This document shows positions 3,077-54,562 of a DNA stretch of 55,863 bases, one piece after another. This DNA comes from Girardia tigrina (Eukaryota), in contig MQRK01242463.1 in NCBI GenBank assembly GCA_001938485.1, positions 1 to 55,863 of the forward strand, read 5' to 3'. The stretch's first letter is position 1; each line of letters starts with the position of its first letter. Position numbers and translations under genes: made by a program. The notes beneath the pieces are model-generated. The model ran no database searches and was not told the origin of the DNA. It worked only from the letters and a program-made list of their open reading frames with translations.

Positions 3077-6000
3077 ATGTGTGTCTATATACATTTGAGG
3101 CGACTTNNNNNNNNNNNNNNNNNNNNNNNNNNNNNNNNNNNNNNNNNNNNNNNNNNNNNNNNNNNNNNNNACATACATATTTATACCAAAAAATTATTTT
3201 TACAATGTAAAATGAAAAATATCGCATTTATTTTTCAATGGTATTTTCAATGCGATTACTATTATTAGGTATATAACTTAGTTTTTTGGATTTTCTAAGA
3301 GATGGTGTAACCTTTGTAATAAGCATTATTTTACAGTAGTACAGATTTTTAAAGTGCTGTAAGTCGACGAGAGATACATGTACTTAGGATCATTTATGGG
3401 TCGCATTGTCGCATACACTCCTGAGAAAATATTCTCTGACGTCCTCGCTGACTTAAACTATATAAATATGCCCCTCCTCCTTCCTTGGCAAAAACTGCAT
3501 TCATACATGTTATTTGACCTCTCTAAATTTATATTTAACTTTAGAAACTTGTTCATTCCCTTTGGCAAATTAATAGAGTCTGTTACAGGATGGGATATCA
3601 ACATTAGGAGATTTTTCAAGGATGTACTAGGAGTACCTCACAACACATCAACACCCTACATCTATGTATCTCATTCAAATGGAGGAGTTGTAATGACTTC
3701 TGCCATAGATGAATACATAATCCAGTCCATCAGTCACTCCTTTTACATGTTAAACTCCACTGACCCAAATATTTCAGAAGCTGCCAATGTCACAATTAGA
3801 CACTCTTTACCAGACAGATCTGTTGGTTTTGATGATGTACTAAGCTGGCTAAACACTTACAATAAAGAACGTAACTCGTGGTGGAATAAAATACATCAGG
3901 CCATCCATATATTTAAAGATACTCATGGAGTTATAATTCAATTTCTTTATAGCTACCCTAGAGTAGTGATATTAATCTCACAGAATGTTGGTGGCAGAGT
4001 GACTCTTGAGACTTTTAATTCTAACAATAAAGATAAATTAACTAAAATCTTAAGGAATTGTGTGCCAAACTCCGATTTGGAGCCGTGGGATAAGCAGAAC
4101 AGTGCTGGTAAATATTCAGTCGCTCTATTACAATCTGCCTAATCTACCTCACCAATATATAAAGATCGACTCACAATTTCTGAATGCAATTTATTCATCA
4201 TTCACGCTCATAAACTATTCCTGTTAAGTGCAGACCGAGTGTAATCATTCGTATTCCTTGTTATCGAGGTTGCTCTAAAGATGAGACTCTTGTTCACGTG
4301 TTGGTGGGCTGTAATTTTTTGAGTAACTTCCGGAATGCACGACACAACGCTGTGCTTGATATCTTCGCTGCTGAAATTAAAGCACACTCGGGTGGTGTAA
4401 TACATTTGAATAAAACCTGTCGGTATGTTCCTTCCACGAAGCATGTTGATTTGCAAATCTTCTTTGAATCAATAAATACTTTGTTTCTTCATACCATCAA
4501 ATGCCCCTAATCTAGAGAATGCTGATTTAAAGAATGTGAACAAATAATTCCCATTAATGTTACAAATTAAAGATATATGTGGGTAAAAAGTCGTCTTTGA
4601 TACAATCATTGTTGGTGCTCTTGGTTCATGGTGGACCCACAATGAGGACATCCTGAACGACCTTAATTTTTCATTTAGAAAGAAAGTCATAGCCAATGCC
4701 TGCGATGAGTCCAACATTCGCTGCTCCTGTCGTCAATGATAAGCCTTTCAGGATCCGCGGGAAAAGCAGAACACACATAGATATGAAGATGTTACGCACG
4801 ATCCAAATGCTGGCTTCGAAGTCCTTCAAGGAGGACTTCTTTTCGGTGAGTACGACTCTGACTCTGTGTTTGGGTTATGGTAGCTGTGTTCTTAACATTC
4901 TGAGGATTTATATTAGTATTGGGATCAAGGTTTAAAATGTTTGTGTTAGGGACAATGACCCAACTTAAGTGTGTTCACATGAGTTTAACTGCTATGTATG
5001 GCAGAGGTGAGAGCTTTTTATGTATGATGGATCCCATGTTCTATAACTCAGTTTGTTTGACATCACAATTGATGTCCTTTGTGTTTCCGCTTTGAACATA
5101 GAAGCAGATGAATGCTTGCAATTTTGGGTCCACGAGCGCTGGTCTGCTTTCCTGCTCCGCAAAGTTCCAATGCTGGTAATTAGGAGCCCTTCTCTCTTTT
5201 TCTTCTTTGCCCCCTTCATCTTCCACTCAGAAAAGGTGCTGCAAAGAACTAAAACTAAATTTTAACAAATCACTGTGTTTACAATAAACATTTTGCAAAA
5301 AAAAATTTTATGATAAATGTATAAAGTGAGTAAAAATGATTTCTAAAATTGATGTTATAAACACTATAAATGTTGACTGGATATGTTCATCATTGAATTT
5401 TCCATTTGCAACTTCTTCGAGTGTAAGTTTTCTAAAACTTTGACTTTTTTTAATTTAATTTTTCATAAATACTTTTATAAATTTTTTTTATAAATTCTTT
5501 TAAATTGCATTATTAATGTTTCAACTAAAAACATTTCATGATCTTCAGCTGACTGAATTTGTTTTTAAAACTTTTAATACAAACCTAAATGAAATCAGAT
5601 GAGCAAAAATCTTAGGACTACCCTAAAAATCTGTTTTACCGTTACTATAATATAATCATTATACTATTTGTTCGAAGATTAATTATATCAATCTTGATTT
5701 TTGAACTGATTTAGATTGTTTTTCGTTGTAGTAATCATTGTTGATCCCTTTGAGTTATATTTTTATAATAAATCGAATTATTTACTTAATGAAAGCATTT
5801 CGTGCAATATTTTGTCACACATACTCACTTCATATCCACATTTATACCAAATTGAATGGCAAAGTGAAGAACCTTTAAAGTTTACCTCAAGGATCATAAA
5901 TAATATCCACCATTTAATAATTGACAAAAGAAATGTTCCAGGCAGTTACAATATTACATGTGCTTTAATATATTATGATTACAAAAACATCGTTTTCAGA

Positions 6001-9000
6001 AATCGACTTTCAGTTACAAAATTGTTTTTCATTACAGGTAAATTTTTTTAATTAAAATTCAATAGAATTCTATTAAAAATATTTCAATTTATTAAAAGTT
6101 TTTTATAAATAAATTTTAATTTATTTTAACCTTCTGTGACGTGCAACGTAATAATGCGTTTTTTAACCTAGGCCGTTCGGCCGTGGGTACACCCAGCATG
6201 CGGGCGGAACTCAACTTGGCCAACAGAATTTTTTAAATTTTTTATTGTTTCTTTTCATGGTTAGAATTCTAACCCAATTTTAATAACAATAATGTTAATT
6301 AATAATATTTTTTAATTATTTTTTTAGATTTAATTATTTAAATTAATTTTAAAATATTGCTATTTACACATATAACTATCTATTAATAAAAGCAAGTAGC
6401 AATAAGTCAGCTATTTTGTCAGTCAACTCTGAGTCTTGAAATTGAACAGAAAGAATATGATCATTGGATTAAGGAAACGGTTGATTCTTGAACATTAAAA
6501 GAGATGGATGTCAATATATATATATATGCAGCAATAACAAATACAATATAAATAATGCTTTTTGTGAGCGCCGATCCCGGCCAGTAAATTAACGTCCGAC
6601 ATCAATAAAATAGCTTCGCTTTAAAAAAGAATAATTCGATGAAAACGGTTCCAAACTTTATTTAAAAAAAATTCTACACTATTCGAATATTTAAACAAAA
6701 ATATTTTTGTTCATATATATTTTTTAGAACCCGTTCATTAATTTTTTTAAGTTTTCGAACTAAAGATTTTAGTATATAAATATTAATGTTGTAAATATTG
6801 TTATTGATTTTATGTATTAAATATTTATGGATTATTTTACTTCAAATTTTTTTTATTTTTTTTATAGATATTTTTTTATTATTACAAAACGAAATTTTAA
6901 AATAATTCTATTTTAAATATCTCACATCCCCCCTTTTTAAGAATTTTAATTGCTCCACATTTCGTGTCACACCTTTCCATCTATCGTTTTCCATTCTATA
7001 ACATCTATCGTGTACTTTCTGTTATCCGATACGGTCCTTCATATTTATGATCTTCTTTATTCCTAACTTCCTTTTTTACCCATACTTCTTCTCCAATTTC
7101 CAACTTTCTCCTTGTGTCCCATGTATCTAGCTTACATGTCTTTTCTCTCACTTACGTATTATTTCCCCTCACCCTTCCTGTGTTCTATCATTCCATTGAA
7201 ACCTGTCTATTCACTTACCGAACACTATTTCTGCCGGCCTCTTCCCCGTCGTCTTCTGAACAGTACTTTTCAAGATGTATTCTATTTCTGGTAAAATATC
7301 CGCGGGTAAAATACCCTTTCTATCTCTTAGAGTCGCCATCCAGTATTCTCTTATTGTCCGAAACTGTCGTTTGATAATTCCGTTTGTTTTATGATGGCAG
7401 TGGCTCGAGAATAACAATTTGATTTTGAGTCTCTCCATCATTTCTCGAATCACTTGTGATTCAAAGCTTTTTCCACAATCTACATGAATTTCCTTTGGTG
7501 AACCGAATTTGAGTATCAATTATTCTGTATTATTTTTTGTATTGTGTTCTCGTCCTGCTTCCTTATAGCCGTGAGTGATATATATTTACTGAATTGGTCA
7601 ATTATGGTTATGATGTATCGTTCTCGGTGAAATTTTTCTTTCGATATGTCGATATATATTTTCTCAAATATTTCATCTGCCTTCATATGTATCCGATCTT
7701 CTTTTGTTTTCTGCGTCACTGTTTTGGTTCGGGGATAAGCTTCACAGTTATTGATTGTTTCTTGGATCAATCTCTTCAAATCCTTCATATCATATGTTTC
7801 CCACATATGTTACCATGTGTTCTCTCCTCCTGTGTGACGTATTCCTTGGTGAATTTCTTTGATTATTGCCATACGTTTCCTTGCTGTTATCCATTTCTTC
7901 CCCATCATGGTGTAAATTTCTCCATTTTTCATGATAAATTTATCCGTCCGCTGAATCTCTATGTCTTTCCGTATCTCTCGTCGTCTGGTGTTGCCATGCT
8001 TGCCAGTAGCCTTGTTTTTGGTTTCTCTTTCTTTGCGTCTTCATGACTCGTCATACATTGTGGACATGTCTCACACATTCTCCTTGACATCACATCTGCA
8101 TTTGTATGCAATGTCCCTTTTCGGAATTGTAAATCAATGTCCAAACTGGAAAAATAGTTTATCTACGTTTGAAATTGTGCGGTGATTGGTTTTTTGGTCG
8201 TTATCATGAAGGTTATCACTTTATGGTCTGTCCTCAGAGTGAATCTCCTCCATACAAATAATGATTGAAGTGTTGGCAAAAGTAATATACAGTAGGAGAC
8301 AAATTATTACATACACCTCTATTTTTAATGTTCTTCTTTTATAAATATTTTATTAAAATGAATATCTTTCTGATATTTTTATACAATATTCTTTATGAAC
8401 ATGAACATATTTTCGCAAAATTTCGTATATATATGTTCATTTTTTAAAAAGGTATAACACTTTGAACATAAAATATGATGGACAAATTATTAAATACACA
8501 AAGACGCTGTTACACAATAAAGGTAGGAAAAGCCAAATAATACACAAAACACATATATTTAAGGTACAAAACTTTAGCTTAATGTTTCTAATATCTTATA
8601 TTACCTCCTTTAGCTTTAATTACTGCATCAATCCGTCGTGGCATGCTTTCAATAACGTTCTTTATTGTCACAGTAAGGCCGACATCTTGAAACCAAACCC
8701 GATTAAGTTCGGCGACCAGACCCTCTTTGGTAGTTATGGTTTGTCGTGATAGACGGTCTTTGACCAAAGCCCATATATTTTCGATGGGATTCAAGTCAGG
8801 GCTGTTACGCGGCCAAGGCAACATCGGAACCTTTTGCGTTTCTAAATATGTCTTCACAATCTTTGCTGTATGGCAGGGTGCCCCATCCTGCATGAATATG
8901 AAATCTTTACTTCTTGGAAACCATTTCTTTATTTGAGGAATTGCTGAATTACGTATGACATCTAAATATTTTTCCGAATTCATAATGTCATCACAGACGT

Positions 9001-14900: not shown

Positions 14901-17900
14901 AGTATTTCATCATTTCTGCAAACAACGATTCGAAAGTTTTTTAAGCGGCCGTCGTACGCAGTTCTTAAACGTAACGGTTGGTTATTGGAAATGTATATTT
15001 TTATTAAATGTTATTTAAATTTTCCTGTTCCTAATTTCTTATATTTTGAAATAAAATAAGCTATAATAATGAAAATATACCCTTTGGCCCACGGAGATAT
15101 ACATATCATATATACATATGGCAGCTAACGCGTTAAATTAAACAAGTTAAATTTGAGTTTTGACTTAATGTTATATATCAATAAACAGCAACTGTCGAAA
15201 TGTCCTAAAATAATATAATATACAGTAAAACCTCTCTATAAGTAGTTATTTGTGACCGAGAAAACTACCTTTCAATAAGAAAAGTTGCTTATAGAGAAGG
15301 AAGGAATATAAATTAAATTAATAAATACAATAAAACCTCTCTATTAGGAGTTATTTTGGACCGAAATAATAAAAAACTTTATTCCTTATAGTGAATTACA
15401 TCTTATAAAGAGGGAACTTTCTAGAAAGGTTTTACTGTAAATATTATTTTCAAACTAAACATTATTTTTGTAGAGTACCAAATATGAAATTTTTTCTTTA
15501 TATAGGAGTTTCTATTTTTCAAATTATACCTGATTTGGATGTAGTATTGTGCTATGATGTAATTTGTTGTGATGTTACTGCAGTTGTGGAGGTTCAAATT
15601 ACCTTAATGGTTTATAATACATCAATTACAGGAATATACAATGTCTGCTATGTATTACCACCTGTGATTCGTAGTTACTTAGGGTTTGTATCATGTAATA
15701 TAACGTACAATACAATCGAAGAACATAAACATAAGCCAGTTGTTTATTTAAGTAAGTGTGGAATTTTCTTTTATTTTAGTTTTTTTCATTTATGCACAAT
15801 TGAAGCAAAATCTTGTTGTAAATTTTAAGAATTTTTGTTATAAAATATTTTTCGTCCTTGTGATCGTACTGCTTGTTACGATGTTGTTTCTGTTTATATA
15901 ATAACATGAATTTTACATCATTCATATCTGGGATCAGTATACCTTTGCCCAAGGGAGGACAAAATATTTTTATTGATAGACATGTTTAATACTTACTTAC
16001 TATCAGGGTGTTGTATCTCAGCAGATGCTTTTTCGGTTTCTTCACCAAGAATAGCTGACCACCAACAAATTCCCGGAGCACGTGCCCACACGATTGGTCC
16101 CATCTGTAGTTCCGTCGATATGTCATCACATTTCTCTGACTGAACTTCAAATAACTTGATGATTTTAAATTGTTCATCGGTGATTATCGTAATCTTTAAA
16201 CATTGAAACAATTTCACGGCCGAATTAAACAGTTCGACAAATTGATAAATAACATTCGCATTCAAATCGACATCGATCTCATCCATATTGCAGAAAATCG
16301 ATTTTTTGACAAAATGGCCGTCTTTAATATCGAAATGTACAATTACGGTTGGAGAGTCTCTTTTGATCTTCTCGATTTGGTTGACTACTTGATGAGCTCT
16401 ACTCAATTTCAAACTGCATATTTGCACGCCCATATCGATTCTGTTGCTGAAATTTATGACCTTTGGAGCCTGATTCTGCGTGTTATCATTAGAAACAGAT
16501 TGAACTGGTTTTTTATTATCTCTCGGTTTACTGGAATTATTATCTTTATCATCGTCACTTTTAAAATTAATATTTTTTATTTTAATCGGTCGATTTATGA
16601 AGTCGTTATCGTGACTGAAGTACACTTGTAATGAGTCTCGATTGAATACTCGACTCAAAACAGTCTAGTTAAAATCGTCGTGTTTCGCCCGATATTCACA
16701 TCGGGATTAAACTTTAAGACACTTTATTTTGTGGTCAAAGCTTTCAATTTGCCTACACGCTTTTTTTCGAAACAAAAACTGACTGTTTAAATTACTCACA
16801 TCAATTGTGTCTAAATCGAGCACAGTTATGTTTTTGAAGTGCCACATTACGAGATTTTTTAGCAATTCATATCCGATACCGCCCGCTCCAACGACCAAAA
16901 CATTACTTCTTTCAACAGCATTCATTGTAATTTTTTATTTTTTATAAACATTGTTTTTCAATTGTGATCATTTTTGATTAGCAATATTTTCATTTATTTA
17001 AATTTAAATGAGACAGATCGATTCATAAAGCTGCAATCATCACAAAACCATATGAACGTGATGATCATATACATTTATTTATATATATACTTATATATAT
17101 TAAATTATTTAATTCAATTAAATCTTATTTAATTTTTTATTTCTTTTTTATTTTAATTACTTATTTAATTATTTAATTTTATTAGTTTAATTATTTTTTT
17201 TATTTAAATTACAAATAAAGGGTTTAAGGCTATCGCAGCGCGACCACAGGATCCGCGTGAATATAATGCCTACTTTAGTTACAATTTAAAACGTAATGTA
17301 TGAATTAATGGTACATACAAATAGAAGGTATTCATGTTGATCCCACCGTTTCTTCGTTTTATTTTGGAAGAAATTAAACAAAACTACAAATTTATAGAAC
17401 AGGTTCAACGTTTTGTATATAAATGAAGATTGCAATAAATGGCATATAAATGTTTTTTAAACGTATAAATTGTCCAATAGGCCTTAAGAGACAGTATGAA
17501 AATAAATAGTAACATGAAAATTGTACTCACGTTGACATAATTAAACATTACACAATAACAATCACACAACAGTGTCTAGAAAAGTGAACAATTTTATAAA
17601 AATTGCTGAAAGTAACCACCAGCATGTTCCTGAAACAATGAGTTTTGGCGGATAAAAGAATGATACACTCTCCGTATTATGGCAACATCAGTAGCCTTTA
17701 AAAGGTTGGATAATCGAGCCTTCAACTCTACAATAGTAACAGGACAGGGTGCTGATGAAGATTGTTTCGTATTGACCCTCATAACCAAAAATCCATGACA
17801 GGCAAGTGCGGACTTCTTGGAGGCAATAGACCTGTACTTCCTGGGCCAGTCCTACGATTTGGCAATTCATGATTTAGATCCTGTCTAACAACATTAGAAA

Positions 17901-20962: not shown

Positions 20963-23900
20963 AAACACTTTCTGTGAATTTTCATTCAAAATTAATGAAC
21001 AAGACGATTTTGAGTTTAAAAAAAATGTTATAACAATAGGCGATTTTAATTTAACTCGGAAAGACTGTTAACTGATGCTTGAAGAGAAAGTGATGTGGTT
21101 ATAAATATGAATCATATTAACAAAGTAAAGATTGATTCAATTTCGAAATTCCGAAACACCCAGATTAAAGTTTTAATTAATATTGTATACATTTTATATT
21201 TCAAATACGTTTTGATTAACTTTTTACTTAACAGGTTGAGTGTGATACGACCCACCAGTGGGTCGTTGCTGATTTCCATCTGCAGTGAAACGATCCACGG
21301 GCGGGTAGTTTATAAAAATAATACGGAATATTTAAAAGAACCCTCAAAGTTGGCATTATTGCCATTTTGAAATCTCACACTCGGCTGCGAACAGATCCAC
21401 TGGTGGATCGCATTCCACTCAACGTGTTAATCATTGTTTTATACGAGTTAGTCAAGTGATGGTATAAGGGAAAATTCTGGGTAGACAGTAATAAATATTA
21501 CATTTTATATATTTGAACTGTTATCTTAGTTAGAGTTCCGGTAAAATATAGTAATACATTTTAGTAAGAGGAATATGTTAAAAAAATTTAAATAATTTTG
21601 AAAAACCATAAAAATTTTCACTAATATAAATTTAGTATTTAAAGGAATTACTTATAATATACCAGAATTTCCCGTAAGTTGTTCAACTAAATCAATTTAT
21701 TGAATAGAGAAAATGATATTTTAAACTGATTTAAAAAGAAAAAACGAAGTAAAAAAGAAACTTCAAGTGCATAACAAAAATACTACTATTACCCTGTATA
21801 GGAGAAAAGGTTTAGTTCTTTTACCTGTTAACGATTCAGATTCAGGAATCACTTGAAGCTTATTGTGTATTGAATGACTATTTGAATTGAGCTTTGTTCT
21901 TAGTTGTGTTTCATTAAAATAAATTATTTTAATGAATAGTTTGTGTTCACTTTACATATACTTATTGTTGGAAGAACCTTTTTGAAATTGACAGTCAGAT
22001 AATTGATAAAGTGCAATAAAGATACAATGCGTTTCATTTAACAACAGCAAAATGTTATAACGTGCACATTTAATTACAGTAAAATCAATCATAATTTTGC
22101 TTTATGATTGCTTTAATGTACTGTTATAAAATATTGCAAAAGATTTATTGAATGTTATTCAATTTTATGATATAATTTTATGTACTGTCGATATGTAAAA
22201 AGGTGAATAAAAAGAAGCCAGTTATCTAAATATCTTTTATAACTAAATAAGTGATAGATAAAAAGGCATTCATTAATAGTACTATTTTTTAGTATTTATT
22301 AAATACTATTTAATAACAAAATACAATAACGTTTTCAGACGATCCGGAAAACTTATATATTTTCCCAAGTACTCCCAAATTAGGAAGCCAAATAATATGT
22401 TTTCCCTATGAAACGATTTTCGATTACAAAATCTTCAAAGATATCAAATTAGATTTTGAATGGAGTGTTCTTCAAAGTCCTAAACTGGATCCAGAATTGT
22501 TCGGGGATACAATTAATTTAACGTTTTACTCAACTGAAGAAAATGTTTTAATTTTATTAGAGGAAATTTCAATATTTGGGATATACATCTTACGGTGCCT
22601 TTGTCGAATAACATTAAGGAATTTAACATTTGAGTTGGATAAAAATGCTACTTACTTCATCACAGGTTTTTAATTATATTTTGTATTCCTAAATGAACTA
22701 AGTACATAATTCTTAAAGATTTTCGAGATGATTTTTCCTCGCTTCAACTCAGACGCCGCGGATCTTTATCATTGTTTAACCTAATTTTAGTCTTATTTAT
22801 TATTAGTCATTTAATAATTTGTCTTACTATTGCATTTAACCAGACTATGGAACGTAATATGAAAACATGTGTGGAAAAATATTTGTTCCAAACGGGATTT
22901 TATAAATCATTTAAAGATAAAACGGTAATTATATGTTCTTATATATAAAATTTAATTAATAAAGTTTAATTGTATGAGAGATACATATACTCTTTATAGC
23001 ACCTATAAGACGTACAAATAAAAATGGTACGTCTACAATAAAATGAGAATAAGAAACAGCATCGAAATTATAAAATTACATATAAACTATTAAAAACATT
23101 GAAGGAACAACAAGATAAAATAACAATAAATTCTTATTATCTTAAGACTATTAATTGGATAGTTTAACATGTTGTTTCTAATAAAATAAATAAATAAAAG
23201 TTAAGGTAGTTCTCCTGAGAAACTTATGCCAATCCAAAGCATTTGGTTAACACAAAAATAACTAGTAAATCAAAACAAAATGATATCCTTTCTTTATTCT
23301 AGCAGAACTCTATTTGGTCAAGATAATTTTTTGTTATCTTTTGTAGAAGGGAAAATTACAATTGCATTTATTAATATCATTAATATTTATTAATTCATTA
23401 ATACTTTTTTATCTTTACTTTGCGTAATATAAACTACTTATAATTTATAAGTAGATCTTTTGCAATTAATTTTGTTCAGGAACTCCGATGTGACCGTTTT
23501 TTCCAAATTCTGAGACCTTAAAAAAGTTTTTTTTGATCAAATTATCACATAATCATTTATTGTCATCAAAAATGAGTAAAAGTGCAAAGTTTGAAGAAAT
23601 TTTATTGAGTAACAAGGGTACGCCGACTTTACCGCGGACGACTTTACCGCGGCGACTTTACCGCGGGCGACTTTACCGCGGAAAATTTACAACAAAATTG
23701 TCAAAAAGTAAACAATGTCATCTAAAATATATATAAAAAATTTTAATTATGTAATGATAAAACAAGGAATCATAATAATTTGAAAACATAAATGGATAGA
23801 AAATTTCAGATGGACATGACATTTAATTATTCTTTTTAATAAAAAAAATAAACAAACAACATACGAAAAATTAGTAAATTCCTAATTTAAAAAAAATCAA

Positions 23901-30116: not shown

Positions 30117-30780
30117 GTGAGTCAATCACAAAAAAAAGTGTGTGAAGTTTAAATCAGTTTAAATCAATTTCAAAAACGGTGATTGTTGTTCAATAAAGTC
30201 TTCAAATAATTTTTCGTATATTTATTATCATGAAGACATGTGTAACATTGTCGAAAGCTTATGAGCAATATGAAAAATTTCCTCTCAAAAAAGATGAGGA
30301 AATAGTGTACATCTATGTCATGAAATTCCTGACGATGCTTTCTGAAGTTAAAAAGTTATTTAAAAGCGATAGAAAATACATTAACGTGATGTGCAATTCC
30401 GAGAAAGTCAATCAGGCATTTGAGAAAGTAGAAAAGTTAAAAGATAGTTTACAAGCGCGATATGAGCTCGATAAACAAAGAAAAATAAAAATGAAAAAGG
30501 AGCAGTGAAAGACTTCAATAATGTTGTGAAGGAATTCGTTAACGTGAAAGAATTCCACAAATGTATCAAACAGAATGAGAATGTATTGATTATTGATTCG
30601 CGATCGGAATCAGAATTTGCCGCGTGTCACATTTCTCACATACGAATTCTTAATAGCCCGCTGATTCGCTGAGTGTTTTAGAAGATGAATCGACAAACAT
30701 TTTTTCTTCTCCCAAAATATCGTGGAGACACGGCTTCCTGTCCAGTAAGGATGTCGATTTTCTAAAGCTTATTTTTTTGT
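30117..30780 (+). pseudogene. USP8: USP8-like N-terminal fragment (USP8 dimerisation/MIT-like + rhodanese domain), disrupted
   Basis: KKDEEIVYIYVMKFL...EKLKDSLQARYE matches the USP8 N-terminus; after a frameshift, VLIIDSRSESEFAACHI matches the rhodanese domain; no catalytic domain. Confidence 0.75.
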
Positions 30781-38480: not shown

Positions 38481-38988
38481 ATTGAAAATATCAGGGTAAT
38501 TATAATTATCATAATGAAGATTTTTAAGTTATTTTAATTAATGTTGGCACAAATTTAGAAATGGTTATTGTTGAAGAATAATATTAAAATAATATTAAAA
38601 CATTTTTAATCATGTTTTTGAGACACATTGTAATAGATTTTCAACTATTTAAAATAGTAATTAATCACTTTTTTATTTTACTAAAAACGCCGTAATGGTG
38701 AAACTCGTTTGTTTAGGAAATAAATTTAATATTAAACAAAGATCTTTTCCTAAATATATAAATTATAAAAAAATTAAATATTTAAATAAAAATATGCGTT
38801 AACTTTATTTTCCTAATAAATAACAGGAATATGTATTTTATCCAATAAAATATAAATTAAAGATTAAAATAGAATTTTTTTCCTTATACATTTTTGATTT
38901 TTATTTTTTTAAAAATTTTAGACAAAAAAATATAAGGTTAATATAGTTTAATAATTATTAAATAAATAATATTATTATTTTTAGAATA

Positions 38989-39507
38989 ATGAGTATTGAA
39001 TTGGAAACATTTTACGATATTCTCGGAGTAACTTCCGGCTGCTCGGGAACTGAGATTCGAAAACAATTTTTAATAAAATCACGACAACTTCATCCCGACA
39101 AAGCCCTACACTCAAACTCAGAATCTTTTATCAAGTTGAAGGAAGCATATGACTGCTTGAAAAATGAAAATTCGAGAAAATTGTATGATGAATTGATTAA
39201 TATTAAATTTATTGAAAAGGAAAGAGAATTAAAAAAGAAAAATAAGAAGATAATTGAGGAGGAAACTAAACCGAAAGTCAACTTACAAAAAGAAAATAAT
39301 AAATATAAAGTTAATTTTTCTGACGATTTAGAAGAAATGGAAGAGATAAAAATCCAATTGAAAAAATTGGATTTGAAATTAAAGACGATGGAAATAGAAA
39401 CTGAGCGCCTAAAGCAAACTGTGGCCGACCGAATAGCCGATCATAAATCAAATCCGCACGTTAAATTTATTAAAGAAGAAATGAGGAAGATGTTTCTGAA
39501 TCGCTGA
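38989..39507 (+). CDS. J-domain (DnaJ/Hsp40 class C) protein with C-terminal coiled coil, 172 aa, possibly DNAJC17-related
   Basis: FYDILGV...QLHPDK...LKEAYDCL....SRKLYD; intact ORF; possible 48-nt 5'UTR intron 38937-38984; AATAAA about 30 nt after the stop. Confidence 0.85.
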   Translation: MSIELETFYDILGVTSGCSGTEIRKQFLIKSRQLHPDKALHSNSESFIKLKEAYDCLKNENSRKLYDELINIKFIEKERELKKKNKKIIEEETKPKVNLQKENNKYKVNFSDDLEEMEEIKIQLKKLDLKLKTMEIETERLKQTVADRIADHKSNPHVKFIKEEMRKMFLNR

Positions 39508-51400: not shown

Positions 51401-54400
51401 TTAATCATCCATCTGGGTAGGAGAGACGCATTTCCAAATCAACATACACATTCAAACACAAAACATCAAACATTCAAAATATTCTTCACATTGTGAAAAC
51501 CGTTTGTTTTGTTAACAAATTTAATAAAAAAAAACATTTGTTGGATCCGAGTTGAAGTTAGTGAAAATCATGATATGTTATAACAGTTATTCAAATATTA
51601 CTGTATTATAAGAATAGAAAAATCATACTGGTGACACCGTACCTGATTCCAGATACGATAGTCAAACTCGAAAAACACCAGAGAGTACGTGCAAAAAGAA
51701 ACTGAGAGTCGTATTATAAAAATAAAATCAATTCTAGATTTAATGAAAGACCTCGTTAGTTGTGAGTACGTTTTAGACTACAGGTCAGTTATATGATACA
51801 TACGTACAACCAAACTACAAACTTTAATTTATTTTATTAATTTTCCAGTCAATTACACCATTTTGTCAGTCAACATTTCAACATTTAAATAACATGTGTA
51901 ATATTAAAGTAATTCATTAAGAATAAAATTAAATTAATAATAAAAAACTGATAAAACCCAGGTTAAATTGAAATATTTTCTTCATTGCCGGCCATTAACT
52001 TGATCACCTGTAAACATGAGTAAATTTTTTTTTAAAAAAATGTAATTTCATATTTAATTTAACATTAATTTAAATGTTTCTGTTTTAATTTAACTGATTC
52101 TGTTTTTAATTTATTTATTAAAATTTCTTAGAATAATTTTATTTACTGTGCAAATTTATTTTTTTATTTCTTATTAATTTTATATTATATAATTTTTGAG
52201 TAAATAGTTTAATATTACTTGTGACTAGTCACTTATATATTTATATTAAAATTAAATATTTAAATATATATTATTATTAAATTAAATTAAAAATAATCAT
52301 TTTTTAATTATTTGATTGTTTGGATTTAATAATTAGTAATTATGATGTCATTTGTCATTTCTGTGCATATTAGACATTTGTTATACGAATAAATTAATTT
52401 CAAAACAGATTTAATCTTAGAAGTAAAATCTAGTTTCAACATATGAAAAAGAATTATCAAATTCCAATTTCAACGGCAGTTTTGATTTTAAATCAACGGA
52501 AAAAGATAGCTGTAAAAACTCACTAGGATTATTTTATGTCGCGCTCTCTCTTTCAATATCTCAGTTTCAAATCAAACAATCGTTTCAATTCAAATTCAAA
52601 TAACCTTTTAATCTATCCACACATTCAATTATTCCTTTATTTAACCCGTAATTTTGAACAATATCAAATTCCTAGTAAACATAATTCTATTTTGTTGTTC
52701 TTGTTTTTCTTGTGTATTATTTTTATACTAGTAAATAACCCGTCATGTATGACGAATATAATTATATAGTTATATAATTACAATTGTAAGTAGATAATTA
52801 TATTAATAATAATTCATATGGAAAATTATCATGAATAATTCTGCTAATAATAATTTTCCATATGAATTATTATTAATATAAATATCTACTTACAATTGTA
52901 AGTAGATAATATGAGCGTTAGTGAAGCAGTGAGTGACTTGGGCTTTTATAATTTTTATTATATCATGTCTGAGATGACCAGGATCACTGATCTTGTACAA
53001 ACGGAAGTGCGTATCCAAGGGTTGTTTGATGAATTGGTGATACATATCTTGCAATATTAATATTGCGAAAATTCACTACTACCATAAAATGAGTGCATGA
53101 AATTCCAAAATCACAATTTTTGAATATTTTATTGTTTTGAATAAATCGTGGTAGTTTTCATTGTTAAAGTAAGTTTCTGGTACTTTAGTTATTTTTTGGT
53201 GAATTTCTAATAATTTCGTAAAATTTGTCTATTTTGGCAAAATTAAAAATAATTGGGTGTTTTCAATTTTGTTTCTTTAATTATTACTCAAAAATTAGAT
53301 GTAAATGAATAAAAAAAAAGAAACTTTTGTATTTTTGAACTCGCTTTTATCAGAACATGACATTGTTGATAAGATCATGTGATCCAAAATCAATCTTCAA
53401 ACAGCTCTCTCAACTAATTTGTTAAGAGTTATTATGTGATTACATAATCGTTCATTTTATGTGACTAAATCGTAGAAATATATTATCAAAAAATATTTTC
53501 TTAATGGCTTTTTTTGTCTTTAATAAATTAAAATGTTGTTTGGCTGAAAGTCACGCTATATCATCGTCTACTTATAATTACAAGTACATAATATATTATT
53601 ATATAAAATTAGAATTTTTAAAGGAAAAATAAAAATAAATTAACACAAAAGAACTAATTAAAAATTTTTCCAAATTTAAAAAATTGACGAATAAAATTCA
53701 TGACAAATCATTTGTTAGTAAACAGATAAATAAGCCAATTTACCTTCGGTTCATTCGGATAGGCCTCGACCATTCTCAAAATATGATCGACATTGTCGCT
53801 GATAAATATTCCCATACCCCGTGCAAGATTCCACGGCTTGACAATCCAGACAGGTCGCTGCAGCTGCATCCCGGGCGCTTTGATCGGGTGGACGCACGAG
53901 GATGCGTCCCCGCTCTCCTCGACCGCACACAGTCCGCAGGCGACTCCACCGAGATTGTGACAATTGCACGGACAATCGCACTCCGATTCCGATTGGTCTT
54001 GGTTATCGGCGCCGTTTTCATGACAGAAATTGATGAACTCCATCAACTCGGTCTTGAGATTGAATGTCTGGACGATCCAATCGGATCCCGAGCCCAGTGC
54101 CGCCAGCAGGTCCTTGATTGTCATGACACTCTCCGATGGGAACTGGTTGATGAGACAGCGCGGTTTGTCGCGGGACAACTGCTCGAATTCCTTGAAATGA
54201 TCGAAGAGCCAGAGAATGTCGGCCGATTCGCGATTATCGGTCAATTTATAGCGTGGATCTGTGACGGTGTTGCGGACAAATGCGACATCAGTGTACACGA
54301 GCAGCGGCGATTTCGAGTGATCGAGTTGACCGAGATTGGCGACCGATAAATCCGGGTTCGATTCCTGGACTCGATGGCTCTGGTGGTTGTTTTGGTTTTG

Positions 54401-54562
54401 ATTATCATTATTATCTTTTTAATAGTATTACTGTGAAAAATTCATTGGATAATGTTTTCGTATCAGATGGTTGTGAGGGAGGCTGTCTGGTCCATATATA
54501 CGAGATACAATTTCGTAAATACGGATCCGATATATGTTCGACACGATTCACGGATAGCGTTT
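48000..54562 (-). CDS. TTLL12: Tubulin tyrosine ligase-like 12, 3' seven exons: 54562-54432, 54379-53744, 50744-50590, 50533-50452, 48465-48397, 48340-48211, 48151-48000; 5' exons not found in the window
   Basis: GT-AG junctions with consistent phase, four introns of 52-59 nt, no stops. Motifs VYTDV, INQFPSE, WIVKPWNLARG, KFDIRY, VFWLRF, HFTVMNY, SRGMYAVDLML and EVNYCPDCTRACQYHPSFFNDVF match TTLL12. Confidence 0.95.
48701..49639 (+). mobile_element. 5'-truncated RTE-like LINE in a TTLL12 intron (antisense to the gene)
   Basis: GVRQGCILSPTLF, LRFADDIDL, FKYLGS, LLYGCESW and GERPRGRP; AAG-type tail; 10-bp TSD AATACTGAAA (48691-48700 and 49640-49649). Confidence 0.92.
50452..50744 (-). CDS. TTLL12: TTLL12 exons 50744-50590 and 50533-50452 (56-nt intron)
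   Basis: IACKYITEPVLF...VFWLRFANK|EFVLGNWDDYETHFTVMNY. Confidence 0.93.
52728..52963 (-). mobile_element. Non-autonomous Helitron in a TTLL12 intron, containing a long fold-back
   Basis: Same 3' end as 20471 (cgtcatacatgacgggttattta-CTAG); 5' end atataataaaaattataaaagcccaagtcactcac is typical of non-autonomous Helitron heads. Confidence 0.7.
53744..54379 (-). CDS. TTLL12: TTLL12 large exon (636 nt, phase 0-0)
   Basis: Acceptor caccag|agc, donor aag|gtaaat; contains most of ORF 53708..54298. Confidence 0.93.

Follow-up and report, generated by a model that had tools for sequence, protein, structure and literature searches.

A mosaic of host gene fragments in Girardia tigrina read as a solo BEL/Pao retrotransposon LTR

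We analysed a stretch of 55,863 nucleotides from Girardia tigrina (contig MQRK01242463.1, hereafter the window), in which a first-pass annotation had described a local mosaic pseudogene. From its ends, its copies and what adjoins them elsewhere in the genome, we identify this mosaic as a solo LTR that belongs to a BEL/Pao retrotransposon family and carries pieces of host mRNA as internal cargo; what had been taken for a one-off pseudogene is the cargo of a multi-copy LTR. The best explanation as a whole, to which we assign a probability of about 0.72, is that of a BEL/Pao solo LTR whose cargo would have been acquired by template switching and whose reading frame would have been kept for the ubiquitin-Gag protein encoded behind it. 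That the family consists of LTRs carrying cargo is, taken by itself, close to certain, and the arrangement of such cargo in frame with ubiquitin-Gag is apparently an undescribed variant. The window copy is a dead member of this unusual variant, broken and decayed after insertion. Its parts are listed in Table 1.

Table 1. Features of the solo LTR and its surroundings in the window.
Feature	Position	Strand	Basis or remark
Solo LTR, BEL/Pao family (by sequence), 1238 bp, TG...CA	16009..17246	-	shared copy ends; same ends flank PPT/PBS elsewhere
Target-site duplication, 5' copy, TCCTG	17247..17251	-	
Target-site duplication, 3' copy, CCCTG	16004..16008	-	4/5 match to 5' copy
Conserved LTR 5' core, putative U3: fixed GC-rich start, AT-rich spacer, TATA-like tract	17066..17246	-	
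TATA-like tract	17087-17073	-	putative promoter role
Hairpin, 8-bp stem and 14-nt loop, putative transcript start (R)	17036..17065	-	cargo begins behind hairpin
Leader	16926..17035	-	3' 75 bp common to many copies
UBA2 fragment, three joined exons, two introns absent, broken in window copy	16674..16925	-	parent G000:C246788
Gene B fragment, 48-bp intron absent, 45-bp in-frame deletion	16131..16681	-	parent G000:C123594
33-bp exon remnant	16098..16130	-	G000:C87751 and two identical places
PWWP domain start, ZCWPW-like (zf-CW and PWWP) gene	16039..16102	-	parent G000:C210773
UBA1 fragment remnant	16032..16048	-	assignment from longer copies
Conserved 19-bp LTR 3' end, SAEIQ in cargo frame	16009..16027	-	
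GTAAGT, flank outside element	15995..16000	-	
Host-gene exon; LTR sits in intron of same gene	15506..15751	+	AG/GT bounds, exact contig coverage

Several observations of the first-pass annotation hold. The start at 16925 is derived from UBA2, with a ThiF match (E=1.6e-18), UBA2 proteins as the best named relatives and 91-95% DNA identity to the UBA2 gene of the same genome; the switch out of UBA2 at AKHD is borne out at 16681-16674, all pieces do lie on the minus strand, and the PWWP start is real. The boundaries and the frame need to be redrawn. The ATG taken as the start corresponds to an internal Met of the parent UBA2, and the splice donor at which the mosaic was said to end is a GTAAGT in the flank, while the feature itself spans up to 17246. 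Nor does an open frame run across the junctions as claimed, since the UBA2 part contains stops and a frameshift and the UBA2 junction is not crossed: the UBA2-like stretch from 16925 (minus strand) holds for 71 codons up to a frameshift near 16765, and further breaks follow at a stop (16712-16710), a second indel (near 16690) and another stop (16667-16665). The 221-codon open frame exists as a frame of 223 codons from stop to stop (16664-15996, minus strand) that is not due to chance, being longer than any in 2000 base shuffles, none of which reached 218 codons, but its closing codons belong to the flank. This frame had been read as a hint of recent origin; it reflects the past of the element instead, the nearest copies standing at 93-95% and most at 83-92%.

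A DNA search of the animal's own genome returned 653 candidates, and all 40 that were scored match at 83-95%. The ends of the copies coincide, at 17246 on the 5' side and at 16009 on the 3' side, and exact 18-mers from the 3' and the 5' end occur 1035 and 227 times, respectively, compared with 0 for reversed controls; the search for multi-copy versions that had been recommended thus uncovers a family of about a thousand LTRs, with lengths of 630-4794 bp. There are 37 two-ended copies, 24 of which were classed as solo; the 5-bp duplication is perfect in 15/24 and matches at 4/5 positions in 7/24, the window copy among them, and the 2/24 without a duplication are one 3' LTR and one 5' LTR with damaged PPT or PBS. 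Elsewhere, copies lacking the duplication have a polypurine tract (PPT) ahead of, or a PBS behind, the same ends. The shared PPT with the LTR start occurs exactly 39 times, and the PBS, which we presume to be of the initiator-Met type, follows the LTR end at a distance of 3 nt in 24/24 junctions. Full elements are present at L182 (outer duplication CAACT), L185, L189 and L284, and LTR pairs agree at 98% over 161 and 175 bp and at 87-89% over about 490 bp, comparisons whose extent is bounded by assembly gaps. The family hence displays TG...CA ends with a duplication of fixed length, a PPT before and a PBS after, and a pair of similar LTRs enclosing an internal region; by counts, solo LTRs make up over nine in ten of the LTR ends. 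A hairpin is found in 48/57 LTR starts. Across 59 aligned copies, 4/8 of its base pairs show changes in both partners and 95% of cells are paired, and pairing exceeds 498-500 of 500 shuffled controls for four of the five measures as well as every slid control, covariation figures that are inflated by the kinship of the copies. The variable cargo starts directly after this hairpin and stops 19 bp short of the LTR end.

The internal region, 3.4-3.5 kb in length, encodes ubiquitin (Pfam, 7e-26), a DUF1759 Gag, CCCH fingers and sometimes a DUF1758 protease, and at L179 a broken reverse transcriptase (RVT_1), a Pao Peptidase_A17 (1e-24) and an integrase (rve) stand ahead of the same PPT and LTR start. 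The BEL/Pao set of DUF1759, DUF1758, RT, A17 and integrase is thus found, but spread over different broken copies, and no intact autonomous element was seen among the retrieved copies. Judged by these Pfam domains, the family is a member of BEL/Pao. The ubiquitin is located exactly at Gag's Met, with a visible GG-Met junction whose GG is kept in most copies; its end is mostly LKGG, not LRGG, and one open copy ends in GC. The interiors of L175, L176, L180, L181 and L284 are non-autonomous variants in which a long coiled-coil stretch replaces pol, and they carry ubiquitin-Gag with two CCCH fingers and sometimes a protease. At L177 (G000:C224516:24051-26059), two ORFs of 238 and 482 codons that overlap each other are unrelated to the element.

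The suggestion that several source genes were fused is upheld, four parents having been traced in the genome, and the recommended comparison of intron positions reveals that four introns are absent from the copy; it is because of these missing introns that we favour capture via mRNA. From its UBA2 parent, the copy joins three exons without the intervening introns of 62 and 53 bp. A real UBA2 or another single parent with the whole architecture had been named as the finding that would overturn a mosaic, but the UBA2 of this genome is normally structured. Over 8 shared bases the UBA2 piece is joined in frame to a piece of what we call gene B, the segment for which a VPS13/BLTP-like origin had been considered. 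That origin has to be abandoned: the parent, the sole match in the genome, has two exons, some 210 codons and a start and a stop of its own, and gives no Pfam match, and searches for its family returned no relative apart from one element copy. Single-sequence structure predictions of gene B gave pLDDT values of 35 and 41, and matches to SPATA22-like and other OB folds from the atlas (at most 0.86) serve as a lead only. From the ZCWPW-like parent, two exons are joined at 16073 over an intron of 7958 bp, and the 33-bp piece at 16130-16098 probably comes from an exon further upstream in that gene. A fifth parent for this piece was considered and rejected, as in longer copies it is joined precisely at the splice sites to the ZCWPW-like exon. 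The UBA1 remnant consists of the last 17 bases of a piece that measures 149 bp in longer copies; the genome holds several intron-poor UBA1 paralogues (L083-L091), of which the C233121 type is the cargo donor.

Longer copies additionally carry a C-terminal piece of UBA2 (E=5e-05), and the window copy descends from such a longer chain, composed of the UBA2 start, gene B, the UBA2 C-terminal piece, the ZCWPW-like exons and UBA1. Shared deletions of 45, 321 and 369 bp, all multiples of three, shortened this chain, along with a fourth without a definite size (long forms 418-435). As in LTR-mediated retrocopies, introns are lost, there is no poly(A), and the joins show microsimilarity, which besides the UBA2/B switch comprises an imperfect match at PWWP/UBA1 and 2 nt at UBA1/LTR end. 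By Pfam, other cargos (L183, L179, L173, L043, L186, L028, L029, L287) include symplekin, Nop, WDR3, cullin, chromo, SH3 and actin, and by eye we recognised further pieces that we take to be Hsp90, USP24-like, MTHFD1 and the start of a kinase. At L283 (G000:C216376), the LTR carries part of the gag of the element itself as cargo.

It appears very probable that selection has acted on the reading frame across the family. Where 300 clean bases precede the LTR end (63 cases), the frame that reads SAEIQ stays open over 99 codons in 21, compared with 1, 2, 1, 0 and 0 for the other five frames. This frame is favoured by 19/24 terminal cargo types, which are nested and hence not independent; the window's end type (40 copies) lies outside the 19 and ties with another frame (medians 42.5 vs 43). 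A frame without a stop passes from the LTR via PBS and ubiquitin into Gag at 5/24 junctions (L155, L185, L286, L287, L288), the one at L287 extending over 638 codons with SH3 and actin scraps running into Gag, and the remaining 19/24 PBS junctions are broken or cut off. The spacing between UBA2 and gene B is in frame in 49/52 copies, and no frameshift is shared within the linker between PBS and ubiquitin. For changes common to at least three copies, N/S is 0.26 in ubiquitin, 0.30 in Gag, 0.98 in this linker and 0.41-1.0 within the cargo; for private changes it is 0.9-1.6. Open frames from ATG to end are found in 0/31 UBA2-type LTRs, whose lengths modulo 3 divide as 11/10/10, and some cargo frameshifts are common to several copies; the depletion of disruptive cargo changes is only modest (p=0.04), with p=0.30 for stops and p=0.51 for indels taken separately. 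In most copies an in-frame Met follows shortly behind the PBS, and Gag may consequently not need a start supplied by the cargo.

Transcripts had been suggested as a further check. Contigs from 4 of 7 listed runs were compared, three of these runs being of one sample, and that they stem from RNA is a guess. Contigs of one sample match the host exon at 15506-15751 exactly and leave the single-copy intron flank empty. The contigs carry spliced parents, and two in X1 (records 5 and 6) bridge the UBA2/B join, whereas none among the 4 runs links the window copy to its own flank; we take this as a weak sign that some family copies are transcribed, though not that the window copy is. The annotation's placement of the mosaic antisense within an intron of an IgSF gene stands as far as the intron of a plus-strand gene is concerned, but the IgSF identity is unconfirmed, there being no Pfam match for three candidate exons. 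These candidate host-gene exons (5710-6051, 15506-15751 and 22317-22673, plus strand) have Ig-like Cys/Trp spacing. Elsewhere in the window lie a fragment of the USP8 dimerisation domain (30197-30505, plus strand; E=1.5e-12) not bounded by LTR end motifs, a DnaJ-domain ORF of 181 codons (38962-39507, plus strand) that is possibly the cargo of another carrier, and a fragment of the Tubulin-tyrosine-ligase family (53708-54418, minus strand).

We propose that the transcript would start at the hairpin (R), which would place the cargo in the transcribed leader (U5/R). The reverse transcriptase, while copying the leader from its tRNA primer, would switch to a co-packaged mRNA and return at short matches of the kind seen at template switches in LTR-mediated retrocopies, as reported in PMC5131818; if this capture occurs during first-strand synthesis, the new leader would be copied into both LTRs. 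Gag would be translated behind the cargo, and leaders with start codons leading out of frame would either lose Gag or have their transcript degraded, from which we infer a need in cis for Gag, or for escape from nonsense-mediated decay. Host deubiquitinases are predicted to cut after GG and thereby free Gag from the cargo, and we consider such a release of Gag by ubiquitin probable. Finally, LTR-LTR recombination would give rise to the solo LTRs. Only tentatively, and at somewhat less than even odds, do we extend this to an LTR that serves as an exchangeable, translated exon-shuffling cassette, in which whatever host mRNA piece enters the leader in frame is tolerated since ubiquitin frees Gag, and hundreds of promoter-bearing, multi-gene, in-frame chimeras persist as solo LTRs across the genome, giving mosaic proteins and host-matching germline small RNAs.

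The frame could instead be kept solely against nonsense-mediated decay or a blocking upstream ORF, with ubiquitin as a stabilising or incidental domain of Gag. A linker that keeps its frame at an N/S of about 1, the in-frame Met behind the PBS and a ubiquitin end unlike the host type all agree with this view, which we nevertheless regard as unlikely given that the constraint on ubiquitin equals that on Gag, that it is placed exactly at Gag's Met with GG mostly kept, and that a cleavable ubiquitin would be the simplest way to tolerate arbitrary N-terminal cargo, by analogy with the viruses described in PMC8310069. Selection of the cargo proteins themselves, as decoys or fragments of SUMO/ubiquitin, chromatin or meiotic factors that help the element or the host, seems to us distinctly improbable. 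Many cargos are indeed ubiquitin, chromatin or RNA factors, and shared changes lean synonymous (N/S 0.41 for UBA2 and 0.69 for gene B; p=4e-5 versus private changes), but this skew could stem from repeated re-capture of parent alleles, the domains are truncated within the fold and further reduced by deletions (18 PWWP codons, 6 UBA1 codons), and cargo is swapped freely.

Chimeras of the Pack-TIR, Helitron or LINE type formed by capture at the DNA level, a mosaic pseudogene of local origin, or an assembly artefact, the last of which the first-pass annotation had itself raised, might be entertained in view of the fragmented assembly, yet we give such readings hardly any credence. Pack-TIR, Helitron and LINE carriers were rejected, as there are no TIRs, no Helitron ends and no poly(A) and the 5-bp duplications are fixed in length; introns are gone, PPT and PBS adjoin the same ends, dozens of scattered copies show the same joins, within a family of hundreds of copies, and contigs of a separate data set bridge the UBA2/B join. 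The solo LTR with template-switch cargo, its frame kept for ubiquitin-Gag, is the reading that we retain.

Transducing retroviruses are known for Gag-onc fusions, and the present family resembles them in having host domains in frame in a retroelement polyprotein; their cargo is internal and fixed, whereas here it lies in the LTR upstream of Gag and is freely exchanged. The same likeness and the same difference apply to Burro/GYPSM1, giant Gypsy elements of planarians (PMC6431247). Template-switch capture has been documented for LTR-mediated retrocopies, including Pao BATUMI CG4799_CG11924 (Tan et al. 2016, PMC5131818). According to that article, these share with our cargos the partial intronless mRNA pieces, the microsimilarity at switches, several parents per chimera, the sense orientation and further rounds of retroposition; there, however, the retrocopy takes the place of some internal ORF sequence between the LTRs and occurs in few copies, whereas here the cargo is found inside the LTR, persists as solo LTRs numbering about a thousand and is joined in frame with an internal ubiquitin-Gag that is retained. 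Like BEL/Pao elements (Belpaoviridae; PMC8742986), the family has LTRs, PBS and PPT and the order Gag, protease, RT, integrase; unlike them, it has ubiquitin ahead of Gag and variable host cargo, and its LTRs measure 0.6-4.8 kb against the 0.2-1.2 kb of the ICTV profile, a descriptive trait, the excess being cargo. The PBS in that profile is for tRNA-Arg or tRNA-Gly. Cytopathic pestiviruses also possess a captured ubiquitin in a polyprotein, where host cleavage frees the downstream protein, but these (PMC8310069) are unrelated RNA viruses and single accidents, whereas the ubiquitin of the family is diverged and fixed and its cleavage is predicted only. We found no literature description of cargo inside an LTR in frame with ubiquitin-Gag: the arrangement is absent from PMC8742986 and was not met in the accessible parts of PMC3118150 or PMC6431247, and the word 'ubiquitin' does not appear in the available main text of PMC3118150, although Repbase and supplements, which lay outside the search, may hold such a case.

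LTR cargo is a source of false gene models, as the public predicted proteins P0121, P0122 and P0123 are cargo of the family's LTRs, with P0122 and P0123 terminating in the LTR end or extending across it. Beyond annotation, capture of genes by LTR elements is already known, but a position within the LTR alters the outcome, in that each insertion doubles the cargo and recombination leaves a compact unit of promoter, start and pre-selected open frame as raw material for new genes. If ubiquitin indeed acts as a release adaptor for Gag, it would explain how foreign frames are kept open without any function of the fragments themselves.
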